Shown here in pieces: positions 45,712 to 63,124 of a stretch of DNA of 64,000 nt. This DNA comes from a bacterium (GTDB lineage: Bacteria > Elusimicrobiota > Elusimicrobia > UBA1565 > UBA9628): assembly GCA_021822495.1 (NCBI GenBank), contig JAKAQO010000001.1:80297-144296 (forward strand), written 5' to 3'. Under the pieces are notes generated by a model. It ran no database searches, was not told the DNA's origin, and was given only the letters and a program-made list of their open reading frames with translations. The stretch's first letter is position 1. Every line of letters begins with the position of its first letter. Made by a program: the position numbers and the translations under genes.

Positions 45712-46925
45712 GGCGCTCTCCAAACTGTCACGAGTATATAGTTATGTTCAACGTTAAAAACCGGCGCGGGATTTCCATTATCGGCAAGCGCTTTTCGGGC
45801 TATCTGAATGCCTACTCCAAATTTCTGAACGAATCCGAGATTACGCATGACCTCGGCTACGTTGGGATTGCGATAATCCGTAATCCCCGGCTTGCCGAAA
45901 TTTTCGAGAGTCACCTGACCGAACGGCCCTCCTGGATTTTGCATCTCGATACGGTCTGAAAACCACGTGACCCTAACCGGGGCATTGGAATTCGCGTAAT
46001 CTCTATGCATAACGGCATTCCGGACGAGTTGCTGAAGGGCGTCCAGTGGATAATCACGCCACTGTATTTCCGTTGAGGCCGATCGAACATCCGTCGCAAT
46101 TCGTATATTCGCGCGAAAAATTTCATCTATTTGGCGCATCAAGTCGGGAATAGGACCCTGAATCAGCTTTTGATCCGCGATTGGGTCCGCCAGGGTTGTT
46201 CCGTTTATTCTGAGAAATTGGATATAGGCTCCAGGCAGAAACGATTCGGGCCCTTTTCCGATGGCAATAATTCCCACAACCGTCGGCAGCGACTTATCTC
46301 CCAAGGTCAAAAACCGCAAAGAGGCCATCTGTTGCTCCAATGTCCTCCCATTTACCCGCAAAACCTCCGGGGCAATGGCCGAAGGCAGATAAACGCGGCG
46401 AAAAAAATCCTCATCCAAATCTTTTATGGAGGCGCTCGTGATTTGACGCAAATCATCGGGCAAATCGGCGGCCTTGCGCCTCTCGTTCAGTCGACGCTCT
46501 TCTTCCATTGAGGCAACAGCCCTTCGAGGTCCAACTCGTATCCAAACCTGACCTTTATAGCGAACCGGCGGAAAAAGAGACGGCCAGACGATAACAACAG
46601 CAATCTCGCAACCATTCAACACGCGCTTTTCAACGGACATTGTGGGCATCGAAAGGATATTCCCGTTTGAACGCATATCGGAAAGTTGAATAAGCAACTC
46701 TTCTGTCACTCGCAACCCGGCACAATTACCGTCATCCCGTACGCCGATAAAAATGACGCCGGGCAGATTATGCCCCGGCATATCGTTGGCAAACGCGCAA
46801 ATGGCCTTACACACATCGCCAGGGTTGGCAAGCGAAGCTTTTCTCTCAACACGATCTGACTCAATCTCTTTCAAGAGCGTTATGAGTTCGCTGTCATCCA
46901 TGGATTTCACCGCAGTCCCTGTCAT
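45708..46925 (-). CDS. Schlafen/AlbA_2 domain + HATPase_c_4-like protein
   Basis: N-terminal ESDRVERK, AFAND and IGVRDDG; C-terminal NAVMHRDY, RIEMQNPGG, RNP and GFVQKFGVGI. No terminal HTH. Confidence 0.85.
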   Translation of the reverse strand: MTGTAVKSMDDSELITLLKEIESDRVERKASLANPGDVCKAICAFANDMPGHNLPGVIFIGVRDDGNCAGLRVTEELLIQLSDMRSNGNILSMPTMSVEKRVLNGCEIAVVIVWPSLFPPVRYKGQVWIRVGPRRAVASMEEERRLNERRKAADLPDDLRQITSASIKDLDEDFFRRVYLPSAIAPEVLRVNGRTLEQQMASLRFLTLGDKSLPTVVGIIAIGKGPESFLPGAYIQFLRINGTTLADPIADQKLIQGPIPDLMRQIDEIFRANIRIATDVRSASTEIQWRDYPLDALQQLVRNAVMHRDYANSNAPVRVTWFSDRIEMQNPGGPFGQVTLENFGKPGITDYRNPNVAEVMRNLGFVQKFGVGIQIARKALADNGNPAPVFNVEHNYILVTVWRAP

Positions 46926-48112
46926 GGAAAGCGCCCCTCAAGAGGCGGGATCTCGACGATTTCCCCCAAACGCATTTTTCTCTCAAGCAAAGCTTCGAGT
47001 TCGGCTCTTTGTTCGATTAAAGCTCGTGGCGCGCTCGCATAATTGTTGGCGAACATATCCAAAGGGTTCGGCTCAGGGAAAGACTCATAGGCCTTAATCT
47101 CCGCATCCACCAGGGCCTCCGCGTTTTTGAGGAGTTCTTGATGCCGCGCTTCATCCATGAGTTTGAGCGTCTCCAAATATCGCCTAAGACGTAAAAGCGG
47201 ATCGCGTTTGGCCCATTTCTCCACGTCTGTTTTCTCTCGGTAGCGGGAAGCGTCATCCGCAGTTGTGTGATTGGCCATGCGATAAGTCTCAAGCTCAAGA
47301 AGAGTCGATCCCCGGCCTTCCCGCCCGCGAGAAATGGCCTGCTGCATAGCGGAAAAAACTGCCAAGGCGTCGTTTCCGTCTACCTGAAGGCCAAACACTC
47401 CATACCCATGGGCCTTTTGAGCGAAAGTCTCGGCTGCGCATTGCGTTCGCCTTGAAACCGAAATGGCCCATTGATTGTTTTCTATGAGGAATATCACGGG
47501 CAATTTCATTGTGCCTGCAAAAGTTAAAGCCTCGTGCAAATCGCCCTTGGAACTGGCGCCGTCCCCCAAATAAGCCAAGACGACCGCGCCATCATCGCTA
47601 ACGCCTTTCCCAAAGCGCGACAAGGACGCTCGGCCTTCGGCCTTGACCGCGCCTTTTTTTTCGAGTTTCGCGCCCCAGGCGAGCCCCGCAGCCAAGGTCA
47701 AATGCCCGCCGACTGTGATTGAAAACGTCATATCACGGTTTTCTTCCGGGAAAACGGTCCCACGGTCATCGCCCGCCCAGACTAAAAGCGAATGGCGAAA
47801 TTTCATTCCACGCCCGTAATACGCCCCGGTTCCGCGATAAGTGGGAATCATCCAATCCGAGGGTTTGAGGCAAAAAGCGGGAATAAGTTGGCTCGCCTCT
47901 TGTCCCAAAACCGAAGGATAGGTGCCTAAGCGGCCTTGACGCTGGAGCTTAATCGCGCGTTCATCGAATGCGCGGAGTTCAATCATTTTTTGGTAAATTT
48001 CAAGCAAGGTCTTGGAGTCAATGTGCGGATCAAGAGTGGAATCAACAGAGCCGTCTGGACTTAAAATCTCAAGACGCTGGGTTTCGTGGCGAACAACGGT
48101 TTCAAGAGGCAT
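46922..48112 (-). CDS. pdhA: 2-oxoacid (pyruvate) dehydrogenase E1 alpha subunit
   Basis: LQRQGRLGTY, TPP motif GDGASSKGD..NNQWAIS, and HTTADD. Confidence 0.93.
   Translation of the reverse strand: MPLETVVRHETQRLEILSPDGSVDSTLDPHIDSKTLLEIYQKMIELRAFDERAIKLQRQGRLGTYPSVLGQEASQLIPAFCLKPSDWMIPTYRGTGAYYGRGMKFRHSLLVWAGDDRGTVFPEENRDMTFSITVGGHLTLAAGLAWGAKLEKKGAVKAEGRASLSRFGKGVSDDGAVVLAYLGDGASSKGDLHEALTFAGTMKLPVIFLIENNQWAISVSRRTQCAAETFAQKAHGYGVFGLQVDGNDALAVFSAMQQAISRGREGRGSTLLELETYRMANHTTADDASRYREKTDVEKWAKRDPLLRLRRYLETLKLMDEARHQELLKNAEALVDAEIKAYESFPEPNPLDMFANNYASAPRALIEQRAELEALLERKMRLGEIVEIPPLEGRFP
47582..47653 (-). repeat. Structured repeat inserted in-frame in pdhA, bounded by 9-bp direct repeat
   Basis: GACCGCGCC at 47582-47590 and 47645-47653 (63 bp apart); 52/58 identity to 62652-62709 in inverted orientation. 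Confidence 0.85.
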
Positions 48113-49004
48113 GGACTTTTGAACCTTTCATGAATAATTCTCCAGCATGATAAGAACTGCGAACCAAGGGGCCGGAAGCAATTTCAGCAAACCCCATTTC
48201 TCTGGCGCGCTCAGCGTAAAAATCAAAACGCTCGGGACTTAAAAATTCCCGCACCGGAACATTCCGGCCGGATGAATCAGGCCTTAAATATTGTCCCAAA
48301 GTCACAATCGAAACTCCCGCCGCGCGCAAATCCCGCAAAGACTCTAAAACTTCCTCTTCCGTTTCGCCAATTCCCAAAAGAAGCGAAGATTTCGCCGGAG
48401 TATCGGGCAAAACTTTTCGAAAATGAGCGAGAACGGCCAAAGATTGATCATAGCCCGCTTTTGAATCTCGAACCGCGGGAGTCAGCCGCCGCACGGTTTC
48501 AAGATTGTGGGCCGCAACATCCGGCCGAACTTCTAAAACTTTCTCAATCAGATTTGTGTCCCCGCGAAAATCCTGCATCAAGACCTCGATTTTGGTCGTG
48601 GGACAATTTTGCCGAATCGCTTTGATGCAGGAAGCGATATGAGAGGCCCCCTGATCCGGCAAATCATCCCGGCATACCGTAGTTAAAACAATATAGTCCA
48701 ATTTCATCTCTTGAATAGTTTGGGCGAGTTTTTGCGGCTCAAGCGGGTCGGGCAGCGGAGGTTTTAAAGCGGAACTGACCGAACAAAAGCGGCAACCACG
48801 CGTGCATAATTCTCCCAAAACCATGAAGGTGGCTGTTCCCGCGCCCCAGCACTCGGCAAGATTAGGGCACCGGGCCTCTTCACAAACGGTATGAAGATTA
48901 CGGGAAGAAGAAATTTTTTTAATGCGCTCGTAATTTTCTCCCGTTGGAAGCTTGACGCGAAGCCAAGCAGGAAAACGCGAAAGAGAAGCCTCCGCCACCG
49001 GCAT
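48102..49004 (-). CDS. lipA: Lipoyl synthase
   Basis: CEEARCPNLAEC, CTRGCRFC and RSSY motifs. Confidence 0.97.
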   Translation of the reverse strand: MPVAEASLSRFPAWLRVKLPTGENYERIKKISSSRNLHTVCEEARCPNLAECWGAGTATFMVLGELCTRGCRFCSVSSALKPPLPDPLEPQKLAQTIQEMKLDYIVLTTVCRDDLPDQGASHIASCIKAIRQNCPTTKIEVLMQDFRGDTNLIEKVLEVRPDVAAHNLETVRRLTPAVRDSKAGYDQSLAVLAHFRKVLPDTPAKSSLLLGIGETEEEVLESLRDLRAAGVSIVTLGQYLRPDSSGRNVPVREFLSPERFDFYAERAREMGFAEIASGPLVRSSYHAGELFMKGSKVHAS

Positions 49005-53649: not shown

Positions 53650-53792
53650 CTGAAAGGTTGCGAGTAGGATTAGATAAGATGAATGCCTTAATCCATCAAA
53701 CTCCTGGAGAAGATTTAAACGCGTGTATTTCTCCCCAACCTGCTTTGACTGGGGATATTCTGCCACAGGAAAATGCCATCGTTCCTAGTCAG
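53650..53792 (+). pseudogene. Remnant of integrase 3' end (element copy 1)
   Basis: 143 bp colinear and highly similar to 56695-56837; encodes RVGLDKMNALIHQTPGEDLNACISPQPALTGDILPQENAIVPSQ. Confidence 0.9.
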
Positions 53793-53822
53793 ACTAAAAA
53801 TGTAGAGAGCCTAAAGGCAGAG

Positions 53823-54056
53823 TTAGAGTTTACGGCGTAGGCGCGCGTATTCTTCCAGAGACAAATCAATGTCCCTAAGGATGGCGCGAATGAGCCCACG
53901 GCCTAAATCCTCGCCTTTGTGAAATGGGACAACCGTCGCGCGTCCATCGGGATGATGAAAATAGGCATGACTGCCTTTTTGACGGATGAGAGCGAAGCCC
54001 AAATGGTTGAGAATTTTTCCCATCTGGGACGCCGAGATAATCGGCAACTTGCTCAC
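53823..54056 (-). CDS. hicA: HicA-family toxin
   Basis: GF..IRQKGSH, VVPFHKGEDL and GLIRAIL motifs. Confidence 0.93.
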   Translation of the reverse strand: MSKLPIISASQMGKILNHLGFALIRQKGSHAYFHHPDGRATVVPFHKGEDLGRGLIRAILRDIDLSLEEYARLRRKL

Positions 54057-54271
54057 GCGGCTATTTGAACCTGATGCACCCCGACAAAAGTATTCTGAGA
54101 AACTTGGCTTTTATCGGCCTCAAGACATACCTTGATGGCTTCTTTCAGTCGTTTGTCAAGTTCGCTTAAGGTTCTGGCTTGGGTATGGCAACCTTTGATG
54201 TCTGGAACGATGCCGACATACCAACCATCCTCGTCTTGTTCGATAATGATGGGGAAAGTGTATTTTTTCAT
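54053..54271 (-). CDS. hicB: HicB-family antitoxin (short form)
   Basis: IIEQDEDGWY..VPDIKGCHTQA..EAI. The stop overlaps the hicA GTG. Confidence 0.92.
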   Translation of the reverse strand: MKKYTFPIIIEQDEDGWYVGIVPDIKGCHTQARTLSELDKRLKEAIKVCLEADKSQVSQNTFVGVHQVQIAA

Positions 54272-54320
54272 ACAACCATAGTTTAACACGATCTATCGGC
54301 TTCCGCAAGAGCCTTGAAAA

Positions 54321-54576
54321 TGTTTGTCAAGAACCTTTAGAAATGTCCTGCATTTAACAAGTACGCCCCTCAAACTCCTGGAGAAGATTTAAACGCGCTC
54401 AATTCCTCGCGGCCTTTTGCCCCAGTTTGCCTGAGTTTGCCAGAGAGATATCCCGATAGAATTAGCCACCCATTAGCCACCGCGCAGGTTTTTTTAAATT
54501 CGCAAAATAGCGAAAATGCTTTGTAGAATAAGCGGAGCGGGCCTGTAGTTCAACGGATAGAGCGCGTGGCTTCGAA
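54321..54576 (+). repeat. Direct repeat copy 1: element arm + tRNA promoter + tRNA 5' half
   Basis: Near-identical to 57352-57590 apart from small indels. Confidence 0.92.
54539..54576 (+). pseudogene. 5' half of tRNA-Arg(UCG) (att site)
   Basis: 38 nt identical to 57553-57590. Identity ends exactly at the end of the anticodon loop CTTCGAA. Confidence 0.92.
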
Positions 54577-56090: not shown

Positions 56091-56864
56091 AACGAACGTC
56101 TTAAGGTCTGTTCCCCCTCATCAGCTAATCGTTGGCTCTCGGTGATTAAATCTGTCATTAACCGCGCTCGTGACTGGGATGATTTTAATGGAAACAATCC
56201 CGCTTCCAAGGTGAAGCGCAGTCCCAATAATGCTTCCCGCACCCGCTACTTAAACAGCGAAGAAATCCGCCTTTTTCTTGAAAATTGTGACACTCGCCTT
56301 AAACCCCTGATTATCTGTGCTCTGTTGACAGGAATGAGGCGAGGAGAGATATTGGGAATCAAGTGGGATGATATTGATTGGGGACAATCCCTTATTTTTC
56401 TTCCCAAGACTAAATCCGGTCAACCCCGCTGGATACCGCTATCACCCCTTTTACGGGATTTGCTATCACGTTTGCCCAGAGATTCGGAGCGGGTCTTTCC
56501 TCTTTGCATGATCACCTTCCGAAGATTGTTTGATAGAGCCCGGAATGCTTCAGGACTTCCCCCCTTTCGGTTTCATGACCTAAGAAGAACTTTCGCCACG
56601 CACTATCACTCAAAAACCTACGACCTCGATAATACGCGGCGAATTCTGGGACATTCAACGCTTCTTATGACGCAAAGATATCTAGGTTTTCAAGCTGAAA
56701 GGTTGCGCGTGGGGTTAGATAAGATGGACGCCTTAATCCAACAAACTTCTAGAGAAGACTTAAATGCGCGTATTTCTCCACAACCTGCTTTGACTGGGGA
56801 TATTCTGCCACAGGAAAACGCCATCGTTCCTAGTCAGGGGTATGCCTCGGGTTTGTCCAAATAA
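56091..56864 (+). pseudogene. Tyrosine recombinase/integrase, N-terminally truncated
   Basis: Catalytic R (TGMRRGE), K (KTK), HDLR, LGH and TQRY are intact. The frame starts mid core-binding domain (SPSSANRWLSVIKS), with an in-frame stop at 56067 and no ATG between it and the conserved region. Confidence 0.85.
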
Positions 56865-56880
56865 AAGCTCCATTTTTTGG

Positions 56881-57318
56881 TTATTCTCCATTAGAAGGAT
56901 GAGCGATTTCTTGATAGATAGTCTTCTCAACCTCCTCAAAATTCTTTTCTCTTTGCTCCGGTGAAACCTGTTGAGGCTCTTGGCCTGAAGAATCTTCCTT
57001 TTCTTTAGAAAGGAAATCGAGAGCACGCTGACGCATTTCTCTAGTCATTCTGGCGAGTTCTATATCTTCCTTTAGCATAATATTTTCTCTTTTCAATCTT
57101 GCAAACTTCAATTTCAAAGCATGATTCCGTGCCCTTAAGGCAACATTTTCAGCCTTGTATTTTTCTATTCTTAAGTCTAAATTTAAATAGGTGATGCAAC
57201 CCCATCCCAGAATAATAAACATAACGATTTCCGCTAAATACCATTTCTTCTTCTTTTCCCATTGCCACCAATCCCGGTTCCAAGGGCGAAACCCGCGTCG
57301 CAAGTCAGACTCATTCAT
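56881..57318 (-). CDS. Hypothetical TM + coiled-coil cargo protein
   Basis: 145 aa with one TM helix and a coiled coil. Preceded by TTGACA-N18-TCTAAT and a GGGAG SD. Confidence 0.7.
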   Translation of the reverse strand: MNESDLRRGFRPWNRDWWQWEKKKKWYLAEIVMFIILGWGCITYLNLDLRIEKYKAENVALRARNHALKLKFARLKRENIMLKEDIELARMTREMRQRALDFLSKEKEDSSGQEPQQVSPEQREKNFEEVEKTIYQEIAHPSNGE

Positions 57319-57351
57319 ATCAATCTCCCAGATTAGACCAGTCCAGTAAGT

Positions 57352-57590
57352 TGTTTGTCAAGGACTTTTAGAAATGTCCTGCATTTAACAAGTATGCCCC
57401 ACCTGGAGAAGATTTAAACGCGCTCAATTCCTCGCGGCCTATTGCCCCAGTTTGCCTGAGTTTGTCAGAGAGATATCCCGATAGAATTAGCCACCACGAA
57501 GGTTTTTTTAAATTCGCAAAAGAGCGAAAATGCTTTGTAGAATAAGCGTAACGGGCCTGTAGTTCAACGGATAGAGCGCGTGGCTTCGAA
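57352..57590 (+). repeat. Direct repeat copy 2: element arm + promoter + 5' half of intact tRNA
   Basis: Near-identical to 54321-54576. Confidence 0.92.
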
Positions 57591-61230: not shown

Positions 61231-61685
61231 GAAATTATCAGCGTATGCCCGTTTTCTTTCAGCCAGCGGCGACGGGTCTTATACTCCGGGCAAAACTCCG
61301 CGACCTTATTCCAAAATTCTCTCGAATGATTGAGATGGGCCAAATGGGAAAGCTCATGGATGACGACATAATCTCGAATCTCGGGCGGCGCCAAAACCAA
61401 ACGCCAGTTAAAGTTGAGATTTCCTTTTTCAGAACAACTTCCCCACCGAGTTTTCTGCTCCCGAATGGCGATTCGCCCGTAGCGCACACCCATTCGGGAA
61501 GACCAATAAGAAACGGAAGAAGAAATAATTTCCCTGGCCTTAGCGCGCGAGACAAAATCCCCGTTTCTTCGCGCGGGAGCCTTTGGCGCAGGGAAAAAAA
61601 TTTCGCTGAGGTCTTTTTTCAAAAGGTCGAGGAAATCGCGCGCCTCTTGAATTGAAGGCAAAACATCAGGAATGGAGAAACCCAT
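61227..61685 (-). CDS. YgjP/DUF45-like metallopeptidase-fold protein (short)
   Basis: QKTRWGSCS and YVVIHELSHLAHLNHSREFW motifs. Confidence 0.9.
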   Translation of the reverse strand: MGFSIPDVLPSIQEARDFLDLLKKDLSEIFFPAPKAPARRNGDFVSRAKAREIISSSVSYWSSRMGVRYGRIAIREQKTRWGSCSEKGNLNFNWRLVLAPPEIRDYVVIHELSHLAHLNHSREFWNKVAEFCPEYKTRRRWLKENGHTLIIS

Positions 61686-63124
61686 TATTTCCAATCATAC
61701 TCCACGAGGTAGTTAATTTTTGACGAGGAATTTGCCTTGACGGGGATTTCAAAGGCAATGGTTTGGGCGTCTTTTTTTTTCCATTTCTCGCTTGCGGAAA
61801 CAATTTTCCATTTCGACCAGCGGTACAAATGTTCGACGACTTGAACCGTCACAGCGGATTTTTTGCGATTGGAAAGCGTAATCTCAAAACCTTCCCGCGT
61901 ATTTTTAGACCCGCGTTCAAAACTCATGCGCGTGCGGCGGCCGAGAACGTCAAAAGCCCTCCCCGCATGAATAACGAGCTTCTCATTTCTGGGAGTGGCG
62001 GGCAAAGAATCAGACCCTATCCATTCCAAGGCCCCATTTTTGTCTTTCTGGTACATCCGAATCTTTCCCGGGGGCAAGGGAAAACCCAGATGGGAATCTT
62101 TTGAATTTTTGAGTTTAAAAACCACTTTCACTTCTCCCTGGCTTTCCGCCCCATAATCAGGGTTGACCCGGGTGTAGACGCTAAAGTCTCCCCCAAAATC
62201 GGAGGCGTCATAGAGATATTCTTTTTTTACGGGAATGCCCGAGGCTTCTCCCATTGAAATGCGAACGCTCCCTTCGCCTAAATTGACGAGACCCGGCAAC
62301 GGATAAAGATGGTATTCAAACAAATCTTGGCTTTTCTCGATGATCTGTTGAGCAGCCGCCGCCATCGCCCGAAATAATGGATGGGGGTTTCCCACAGCCG
62401 CCAAGGATTGATGGGGGTTTCCGGCGACTAAAAGAACGCGAGCCTTTTTGAAATCTACGCCGGACTGATTGTTTAAATTAGCCCAAATCCGAAGCTCCAT
62501 TAAATTTGAGGATGAATTAATCATCGCGGCATAACTTGCCTTCCACGTCAGATCGCCGGTTAAATAGCTGATCTTAAACGGGTAAGCGCCCGGTTTTTCC
62601 GCTTTTATTTTCCAAGAGATGGACGGCTTAAAACTCGCTTTCGACAGCGAGGGCGCGCTCAAGGCCGAAGACCGAGCGTCCTTGCCGCGCTTTTGAAAAG
62701 GCGTCAGCGGCAAGGGAAGAACCCATGTCCCTTTTGGATTTAAATAGACCTGGTTTTGAACCTTGAGCGCCGTGAGATGCTCCTCCGCTTCCAACAAAAC
62801 GCCCTTAATCAACGCGGGAGTTTTCTCTTCCCTCAATTCAACTTCCTTGCCGACAAAATTTTTGAGAATCTGAGATTGGTCCGTCCAGCCGCCGAAAAAA
62901 TCTTGTTCCAGGACCGACGCCTTATCTTTCGGATTGGCCGGAGAGATTAAGACGCTGGCGGGTTCAAAGCCCCACGGCACGGGCATCGGCGCGGTTTTGG
63001 AGATTCCCGCTTTAAGCGGGAAAGTTATTTCTTCTTTAATCAACGCGCGCTGATCCTGGTAAATAGTGATTTCAACCGCCTGAGCGCGAACGCCTAAGAA
63101 AATAAACGGCAAGGCCCAGAGCAT
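61685..63124 (-). CDS. DUF4139 domain secreted protein
   Basis: ITIY..ALIKE, SYLT..LTWKASY, NQSG, LFEYHLY and PLPPGKIRMY motifs. Confidence 0.88.
   Translation of the reverse strand: MLWALPFIFLGVRAQAVEITIYQDQRALIKEEITFPLKAGISKTAPMPVPWGFEPASVLISPANPKDKASVLEQDFFGGWTDQSQILKNFVGKEVELREEKTPALIKGVLLEAEEHLTALKVQNQVYLNPKGTWVLPLPLTPFQKRGKDARSSALSAPSLSKASFKPSISWKIKAEKPGAYPFKISYLTGDLTWKASYAAMINSSSNLMELRIWANLNNQSGVDFKKARVLLVAGNPHQSLAAVGNPHPLFRAMAAAAQQIIEKSQDLFEYHLYPLPGLVNLGEGSVRISMGEASGIPVKKEYLYDASDFGGDFSVYTRVNPDYGAESQGEVKVVFKLKNSKDSHLGFPLPPGKIRMYQKDKNGALEWIGSDSLPATPRNEKLVIHAGRAFDVLGRRTRMSFERGSKNTREGFEITLSNRKKSAVTVQVVEHLYRWSKWKIVSASEKWKKKDAQTIAFEIPVKANSSSKINYLVEYDWK
62634..62715 (+). repeat. Second copy of structured repeat, in-frame and antisense within DUF4139 gene
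   Basis: 62652-62709 matches the pdhA insert at 52/58 positions; three adjacent hairpins. Confidence 0.85.

Follow-up and report, generated by a model that had tools for sequence, protein, structure and literature searches.

What is the 63-bp segment that lies, in frame, inside the pdhA gene of an uncultured member of the Elusimicrobiota? The gene is found in a 64,000-nucleotide stretch of assembly GCA_021822495.1 (contig JAKAQO010000001.1, positions 80,297 to 144,296 of the forward strand), which is called the window throughout. An earlier reading of this DNA, made from the sequence alone, had reported 63 extra in-frame base pairs in pdhA after a 9-bp direct repeat and a related segment in a DUF4139-domain gene, and had taken both for copies of an unnamed mobile repeat. 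We found the extra segment, its coordinates and its peptide to be as described there, and the analysis below indicates that it is, with high confidence, a selfish DNA-level repeat that inserts into genes. The full reading, a small non-coding family of 63-nt units that is confined to one lineage and spreads by whole units, is probable, and the idea that a specific enzyme drives this spread by recombination at unit junctions is put forward tentatively.

The host protein matched the Pfam family E1_dh (E=4.4e-72), and the 9-mer GACCGCGCC occurs twice around the insert, at 47582-47590 and 47645-47653. PdhA matches were present in 35 of the 41 genomes searched, including the 2.2-Mb genome that holds the window (G000), and loci were compared for 29 of the 34 others. 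Each of these 29 orthologous loci, taken from as many other genomes within the order, has a 21-residue gap at the position of the insert, which is hence private to one species among the loci compared. The DNA of the two nearest species, whose PdhA is 91% identical, was without exactly 63 bases, and a single copy of a near-identical 9-mer was kept at the empty pdhA site. Removal of the segment thus restores a normal PdhA, as had been proposed, and the alignment to the solved pyruvate dehydrogenase E1-alpha structure 1w85_A likewise ends at query residue 156 and restarts at 176. An AlphaFold2 model of the protein (26 sequences) had a mean predicted local distance difference test score (pLDDT) of 80.3, with values below 50 over residues 157-172 that are partly due to empty alignment columns at the insert. 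This stretch sits between a helix (136-158) and a strand (178-182) leading into the GDG motif. The insert, proposed in the sequence-only reading to add a new peptide loop, is modelled as a loop between the helix and the pre-GDG strand, at low model confidence.

An assembly artefact was ruled out, since Logan contigs, assembled independently from public runs, read through both junctions with 0 differences (X1, records 1 and 7), and a contig of run X4 (record 10), from a related organism about 87% identical, skips exactly the 63 bases. Runs X5 and X6 span 47387-47562 only, i.e. outside the insert. No same-strain polymorphism of the insert was seen in the Logan contigs; the sole contig without it, being only about 87% identical, comes from a relative and not from the same strain. 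The start of pdhA is overlapped by 11 bases (window 48102-48112) by a lipoyl synthase-like gene (48102-49004, minus strand), and the two genes are probably co-translated.

The second window copy, in the DUF4139 gene, is 52/58 identical to the first by BLAST, and an ungapped extension covers 69 nt at 84% identity; relative to their hosts the two are oppositely oriented, the pdhA copy being antisense and the DUF4139 copy sense, in agreement with the earlier description. The insert is found at the same place in one sister species (G004) and is missing from nine other genomes with a match spanning the site, one further match (G023) having left the site uncovered. Orthologues without the segment are thus the rule for PdhA and common for the DUF4139 protein. 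A search of G000 with a profile of 136 family members recovered 13 units, spread over 12 loci, with E-values between 6e-16 and 2e-8, and in a genome of this size such a number places the original two-copy match beyond chance; an earlier profile of 8 copies had given 9 strong matches and 4 weaker ones. A weak match in a T2SS-F gene (G000 C6:98120, E=0.015) was gone with the family profile and was taken as chance.

Most of the G000 copies are in coding sequence (Table 1), and all host reading frames stay open despite the repeat. Since the encoded peptides vary with the orientation and the frame of the repeat, it is a feature of the DNA and not a protein domain. A scan of 47400-47800 against Rfam at E up to 10 gave no match to the repeat, just a chance antisense-RNA hit, and no description of such repeats in Elusimicrobiota, or of their core strings, was found in the published literature. 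The family is accordingly new in the sense that it was not found described in print, and it had rightly been called unnamed; its kind, resembling Rickettsia palindromic elements (RPEs) or intragenic repetitive extragenic palindromes (REPs), is known, although some of its traits are unusual.

Table 1. Window features and copies of the 63-nt repeat in G000, with the genomes in which each site is filled or empty. Positions refer to the window unless a G000 contig is named; host assignments of the G000 copies are from Pfam.
Feature	Position	Strand	Filled in	Empty in	Remarks
Left direct repeat GACCGCGCC	47582..47590	+			Pre-existing target; Gly-Ala-Val codons of pdhA on the minus strand
63-nt unit within pdhA (window copy 1)	47591..47653	repeat sense on window +, antisense to gene	G000	29/29 others	Internal; adds 21 codons; family-profile E=5.9e-16
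Hairpin part of the pdhA copy	47591..47624	+			Arms 47591-47598 and 47617-47624, loop 47599-47616; from family alignment and covariation
Conserved 29-nt module of the pdhA copy	47625..47653	+			GACG start, GGCC/GGCC mini-hairpin, GACCGCGCC end
pdhA (E1 component alpha subunit), host gene	46922..48112	-			396 aa; insert at residues 157-177
63-nt unit within DUF4139 gene (window copy 2)	62652..62714	-	G000, G004	nine others	Internal; sense to gene; older copy common to G000 and G004; E=9.6e-14
DUF4139-domain gene, host	61685..63124	-			479 aa; insert at about residues 140-160, upstream of the Pfam-matched stretch 184-243
Copy in class-III aminotransferase gene			G000, G001	G002-G005	Internal
Copy in radical-SAM protein gene			G000	G002-G005	Internal; no orthologue in G001
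Copy in PQ-loop membrane protein gene					Internal
Copy in RapZ gene			G000	G002-G005	N-terminal leader; no match in G001
Copy in family-9 glycosyltransferase (heptosyltransferase) gene			G000	G002, G003, G005	N-terminal leader; unrelated ~240-nt insert in G004; no match in G001
Copy in small conserved membrane protein gene					N-terminal leader
Copies in TldD/PmbA-type peptidase gene			G000, G001, G004 (2-3 units)	G002, G003, G005	C-terminal tail; two tandem units in G000
Copy in gene of 466-aa protein					C-terminal tail; host without Pfam match
Intergenic copy					Between two convergent genes
Partial copy	C5:11070-11110				Beside another repeat

To define the unit, 147 distinct copies from all loci were gathered, and 136 of them make up the alignment A1; the 11 that were dropped comprised four with a different, longer hairpin before the same module, one with an inverted hairpin and six truncated or aberrant ones. 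The unit begins with a hairpin of about 34 nt, which has a variable stem of 8-9 bp (nine paired alignment columns) and a loop of 15-18 nt, and ends with a near-constant module of 29 nt. Hairpins in both window copies, and a compensatory change between them, had been part of the sequence-only reading. Singly, neither copy folds better than shuffles on either strand (z -1.8 to +0.2), Watson-Crick pairing holds in only 5/8 stem pairs of the pdhA copy, and the compensatory case cited amounts to one pair plus wobbles. The support comes instead from covariation across the family: double changes were observed in 8 of the 9 stem pairs (120 cells in 136 copies), which 0 of 500 shuffles reached, and there are 74 distinct 5' arms among the 136 copies. 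The arms of a copy fold together at -14.7 kcal/mol on average, versus -10.9 kcal/mol when the 3' arm is taken from another copy (p=3e-19). Paired stem cells make up 77%, a figure depressed by one subfamily with a one-base bulge.

Directly 3' of the stem, as read on the sense strand, the module opens with GACG (CGTC on the other strand), in which alignment A1 shows no variation at GAC and very little at the last G; it continues with a GGCC/GGCC mini-hairpin that is 99% paired, and its end is GACCGCGCC. Among the BLAST-retrieved copies, too, the core of the module shows little or no variation. When orthologous units were compared with 240 nt of flanking coding DNA, the unit was better conserved in three of five comparisons (57/63, 58/63 and 59/63 identical versus 84%, 76% and 70% in the flanks), which hints weakly at constraint, or at conversion among the copies. 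Two aberrant forms were seen among the dropped units. In one copy (L221:258-338, JACQWX010000038.1) the hairpin is inverted relative to the constant module, and its loop is the reverse complement of the usual one. In four copies from JACRDT records (L172, L222, L225 and L246) the 29-nt module is joined to a longer hairpin with an 11-bp stem and a 7-nt loop; two of them come directly after a TGA triplet, and the four may be a terminator-like subfamily.

The units are mostly found in reading frames, 121 of the 147 lying within a frame that is open for at least 60 codons (or to the edge of the locus) on both sides and most others lying near gene ends. All six frames are used, by 38, 22, 21, 19, 15 and 6 of the 121 units. 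The share of units in open frames, 121 of 147, is about what random placement would give in gene-dense genomes; coding sequence is not avoided by the family, unlike the case of typical REPs. Selection for translatability in all frames was considered and rejected: 81% of the 147 units have 5-6 open frames, versus 63% for mononucleotide shuffles and 82% for shuffles that approximately preserve dinucleotides, and the units average 77% GC, so composition alone explains their openness.

The repeat is confined to one family-level group of uncultured Elusimicrobiota. At least 4 matches were found in 8 of the 41 related genomes (G000 included), namely in two of five sister species, which makes the presence patchy even within the genus, and in five further genera within the family; the one 21-nt match in each of G016 and G039 was put down to chance. 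An exact scan for a 27-nt core pattern in one genome per species (185,579 genomes) gave 117 loci in 10 assemblies, with 43, 41, 10, 7, 5, 3, 3, 2, 2 and 1 loci each. Nine of these assemblies are titled Elusimicrobia or Elusimicrobiota and one only 'bacterium'; the pattern being exact, distant relatives would escape it. Viral contigs and plasmids each gave 0 matches to the core. Hairpin-defined subfamilies recur across assemblies, one of them with 17, 11 and 1 members in three assemblies. The further copies whose existence had been a test of the earlier reading are thus numerous, and they are mostly coding.

Comparison of filled and empty sites shows how the units are added. Besides pdhA and the DUF4139 gene, empty counterparts were found at five more host genes (Table 1), and at least 5 of the 12 G000 loci are private to its species, i.e. 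lineage-specific insertions; the proposed mobile nature of this dispersed, non-coding hairpin repeat is supported by such pairs. The net insert was 63 nt at pdhA, DUF4139, aminotransferase and radical SAM, 69 nt at RapZ and 75 nt at the glycosyltransferase, so that whole codons are added. Tandem spacing was 63 nt in all 8 arrays with adjacent matches. The TldD tail holds two unlike units in G000, three identical ones in G001, and two identical ones plus a fragment in G004, and the second unit of G000 is of a different hairpin subfamily from the first; both re-insertion and local slippage seem to occur there. The DUF4139 copy is shared by G000 and G004 and not by G001, while the aminotransferase copy is shared by G000 and G001 and not by G004, and this conflict requires precise loss, a second hit or recombination between lineages for one of the two.

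Some of these sites carry other sequences as well. The G004 loci L105 (C82) and L110 (C7) are orthologous to G000 C4:754788 and C13:32013. Ahead of the glycosyltransferase gene, the G004 junction is occupied by another, unlike insert of about 240 nt with a GGACCCCGAC...GTCGGGGT hairpin, and this hairpin was also found after the TldD array of G004; these two junctions are hot spots for several repeat families. In G005 and G003, whose PQ-loop gene is without the repeat (L091 and L093; the site of G000 C5:26402-26476), a stretch of about 48 nt has scattered similarity to the unit and may be an old, decayed copy or an effect of the alignment.

The end repeats at filled sites always touch the boundary of the unit, and their extent differs by site: 9 nt to the left at pdhA (-9..-1), 3 nt left and 5 right at the aminotransferase (-3..+5), 2 left and 7 right at DUF4139 (-2..+7), 3 left and about 10 right at TldD, and 16 nt across the boundary at RapZ. 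The flanks resemble the unit itself. In the 118 copies without a unit on the left, the flank resembles the end of the unit: position -1 is C in 115, -2 is C or T in 115 and -3 is G in 102, and the preference weakens further out. Whether -2 is C or T matches the end of the unit in 80% of cases, versus 57% after shuffling. On the right (129 copies without a unit there), at least the first five bases repeat the unit's start in 32 copies, versus 3.8% after shuffling. Because the flanks are like the end and the start of the unit, the target looks like the junction of two head-to-tail units, with insertion right after a G-Y-C that is usually part of a sequence similar to the end of the unit. The 9-bp repeat that bounds the pdhA insert is real, as had been noticed, and is the conserved end of the family, part of a junction-homology signature and not an arbitrary target duplication; a classical 9-bp target-site duplication was rejected, as the repeated window differs between sites. 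A target that is junction-like and of varying extent does not fit a transposon with fixed ends and a fixed-length duplication. Two models do fit: the junction of a circular or tandem donor recombining with look-alike sites, or template switching guided by microhomology.

The repeat thus spreads as DNA, whole units being added, so that reading frames survive at each landing site. Most copies therefore lie within ordinary genes, where they add loops or tails of 21 residues; both orientations and all six frames are found, the peptides are presumably neutral passengers, and the stem is free to vary in sequence so long as its pairing holds. From these results a hypothesis regarding the mechanism may be formulated. 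A trans-acting enzyme specific to both sequence and structure would recognise the module and the hairpin, and would recombine look-alike genomic sites with the junction at which end meets start in a circular or tandem copy, probably a single strand, re-insertion beside a resident copy giving the 63-nt tandem arrays. The most specific version of the hypothesis is a new type of miniature mobile element that travels as an exact 63-nt (21-codon) circle or tandem single strand, its junction being recombined with look-alike sites by a site-specific enzyme that reads module and hairpin; we consider it unlikely. If true, it would represent a transposition-like system whose unit length keeps each insertion in frame, allowing colonisation of coding sequence in gene-dense genomes and the seeding of new protein loops.

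The main rival requires no dedicated enzyme. Host replication or break repair would copy the units by microhomology-mediated template switching: a nascent strand whose last few bases match the end of the unit would jump to an existing copy between direct repeats, replicate a single 63-nt unit there and jump back through the same microhomology, polymerase stalling being promoted by the hairpin. The end repeats that touch the junction and differ in extent at pdhA, the aminotransferase, DUF4139 and RapZ are what this process would leave, the similarity of the flanks on both sides of the unit suits it equally, tandem arrays of identical, species-specific units suggest slippage in situ, and no associated enzyme gene was found. 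However, a 29-nt module that is near-unchanged across genera of very different GC and a compensated hairpin point to recognition by a specific protein, the second TldD unit of G000 must have been inserted and not slipped, given its different hairpin subfamily, and ordinary microhomology would not yield the same 63-nt unit at dozens of unlinked sites. We regard template switching as somewhat improbable, though ahead of the other alternatives.

A candidate for the enzyme was sought among small mobilising proteins. Elements of the IS200/IS605 group insert 3' of a short specific sequence and make no true duplication, and an insertion right after G-Y-C resembles this behaviour. The corresponding alternative is a classical REP moved by a REP-associated tyrosine transposase (RAYT, of the Y1/HUH type), either one of the two Y1 (RAYT/IS200-type) genes of G000 acting in trans or one since lost. 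Its antisense strand does carry CGTC directly before the stem, as in the CGTC-tagged REPs of the sections of PMC3733652 drawn on here, and the partial copy on C5 lies directly beside a repeat belonging to the same type as those around the second RAYT. The search for a RAYT/IS200-type partner suggested in the sequence-only reading nevertheless found none beside the repeat in G000. The loop of 15-18 nt, against 4-5 nt, and the absence of A/T pairs at the stem base likewise depart from the REPs described in that part of PMC3733652, and co-variation of the C/T in the left flank with the unit's end is not expected for a HUH mechanism. Mobilisation by a RAYT is thus quite unlikely.

The two G000 Y1 genes have repeats of their own. 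One (C11:85009-85341; region C11:84700-85520) is flanked by a perfect palindrome that is built around GGGGACAGTCCCC, contains A/T runs and, with about 90 copies when counted by 14-mers, is the commonest repeat of the genome; the other (C5:16025-16321) is flanked by a second repeat type.

Several observations weigh against the hypothesis of an enzyme-driven, self-spreading family. No mobilising enzyme was found for the repeat: it flanks neither Y1 gene of G000, each being flanked by other repeats, and the eight Y1 loci of five repeat-bearing relatives gave one partial match (E=1.5e-4), at a distance of about 1 kb from a RAYT with another repeat on its own flanks. Y1_Tnp matches occur in 36 of the 41 genomes, with or without the repeat, and are absent from two repeat-bearing ones, G004 (97% complete, at least 17 copies) and G014 (98% complete, 9 copies). 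Homologues of the single small GIY-YIG (Ssn-type) gene of G000, which encodes 105 aa and lies beside an apparent tRNA gene, are present in 37 of the 41 genomes irrespective of the repeat, and the flanks of 32 GIY-YIG loci contained no repeat copy (no match with E <0.2). The varying window of the direct repeats fits enzyme-free template switching too. Copies are few (13 in G000), and neither identical copy pairs nor same-strain insertion polymorphisms were seen, so that current activity is not supported. The near-invariance of the module in loci L152-L268 is partly by construction, the scan pattern having covered 27 of its bases, and counts of G-T and A-C mismatches (64 versus 39) single out no folding strand. 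As to the GIY-YIG protein, no NCBIfam model matched it; the apparent tRNA gene adjoining its gene is L275:1365-1440 (G000 C4, about 443165-443240).

That the repeat persists because it serves some function and is not selfish DNA, whether as a DNA site of the protein-binding or uptake type, as an RNA element or as a peptide module of use to its hosts, is scarcely credible: the high conservation of the module, and of the unit over its flanks in three of five comparisons, would agree with it, but the copies number only about 13 per genome, occupy genes with no relation to one another, in either orientation and in any of the six frames, are patchy even among sister species, match nothing in Rfam and include the species-private insert of pdhA.

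To our knowledge, in-frame palindromic repeats are textbook material only for Rickettsia, and intragenic REPs have been noted in a few other species. We know of no report of exact-unit tandem iteration or junction-like targets for RPEs. These elements (Ogata et al. 2000, 2002, as summarised in PMC10969869) are, going by the portion of that summary used here, hairpin-forming repeats of about 150 nt that lie in frame in unrelated housekeeping genes, with no transposase known, and they are the nearest known system in behaviour. Both families are non-coding hairpin repeats found in frame in unrelated genes whose orthologues are without the insert, both add peptide segments that appear tolerated, and each is seen in one lineage, with no transposase known. 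The Elusimicrobiota repeat differs in its length of 63 nt and in its composition of a constant module and a variable hairpin; there is no sequence relation between the two, and the exact core occurs only in Elusimicrobiota-type assemblies as far as an exact pattern, which misses distant kin, can tell.

The CGTC-tagged REPs (Di Nocera, De Gregorio and Rocco 2013, PMC3733652) have, in the sections of that paper relied on here, CGTC beside an 8-9-bp stem, a loop of 4-5 nt and a length of 20-40 bp, and their intragenic copies encode about 20-30 residues, e.g. in Opitutus terrae and R. conorii. An unpaired CGTC directly beside an 8-9-bp stem, intragenic copies and the lack of a known dedicated transposase are shared with our repeat. 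On the same partial basis, the differences, apart from the loop, are that the first two stem pairs are G/C here (the outer pairs mostly C-G) and not A/T, that there is no CCA tail, that a conserved extension of 25 nt brings the unit to 63 nt, that the arrays are head-to-tail and not head-to-head dimers, and that the copies are mainly intragenic and not extragenic. Unlike in the REP-RAYT system (REPtron), no Y1 gene flanked by the repeat was found among the loci of G000 and five relatives, nor any co-occurrence with Y1 genes across the 41 genomes.

Ssn nucleases, GIY-YIG enzymes that act on single strands, bind and cleave the hairpin repeats called NTS/SRM (Chenal et al. 2025, PMC11893778, as far as the part of it used here goes). 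These repeats share with ours a multi-copy hairpin headed by (C)GTC, and they suggest, plausibly, how a small protein could recognise a single strand in folded form. When judged by eye against the pattern given in that part of PMC11893778, our repeat departs from SRM in the base after GTC, which is C in most of the 136 copies and not A or T, and in a loop far above 0-5 nt; the distribution of GIY-YIG genes and their repeat-free flanks, described above, differ as well.

Two further classes may be compared by their architecture. An inspection of A1 revealed neither terminal inverted repeats, the start of the unit not matching the reverse complement of its end, nor an attC-like architecture, and the target window varies by site and mirrors the unit junction, in contrast to the fixed-length arbitrary duplications of miniature inverted-repeat transposable elements. 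Enterobacterial bacterial interspersed mosaic elements (BIMEs) and mycobacterial interspersed repetitive units (MIRUs) are likewise short interspersed units that also form head-to-tail arrays with copy numbers varying among close relatives; they are essentially intergenic, whereas the unit of Elusimicrobiota adds whole codons within reading frames.

With more than 100 copies, clean pairs of empty and filled sites among sister species and a clear anatomy, the choice of site, the whole-codon size, the mover and any use of the loops are directly testable in this family. The inserts also matter for annotation, as they split homology matches, as in the alignment of PdhA to the PDB structure, and break metagenome contigs.

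Elsewhere in the window, the segments 53650-54576 and 56695-57590, about 3.0 kb apart, are 91-98% identical (repeat families D1, D2, D3 and D6) and look like a tandem duplication of a gene-sized block.

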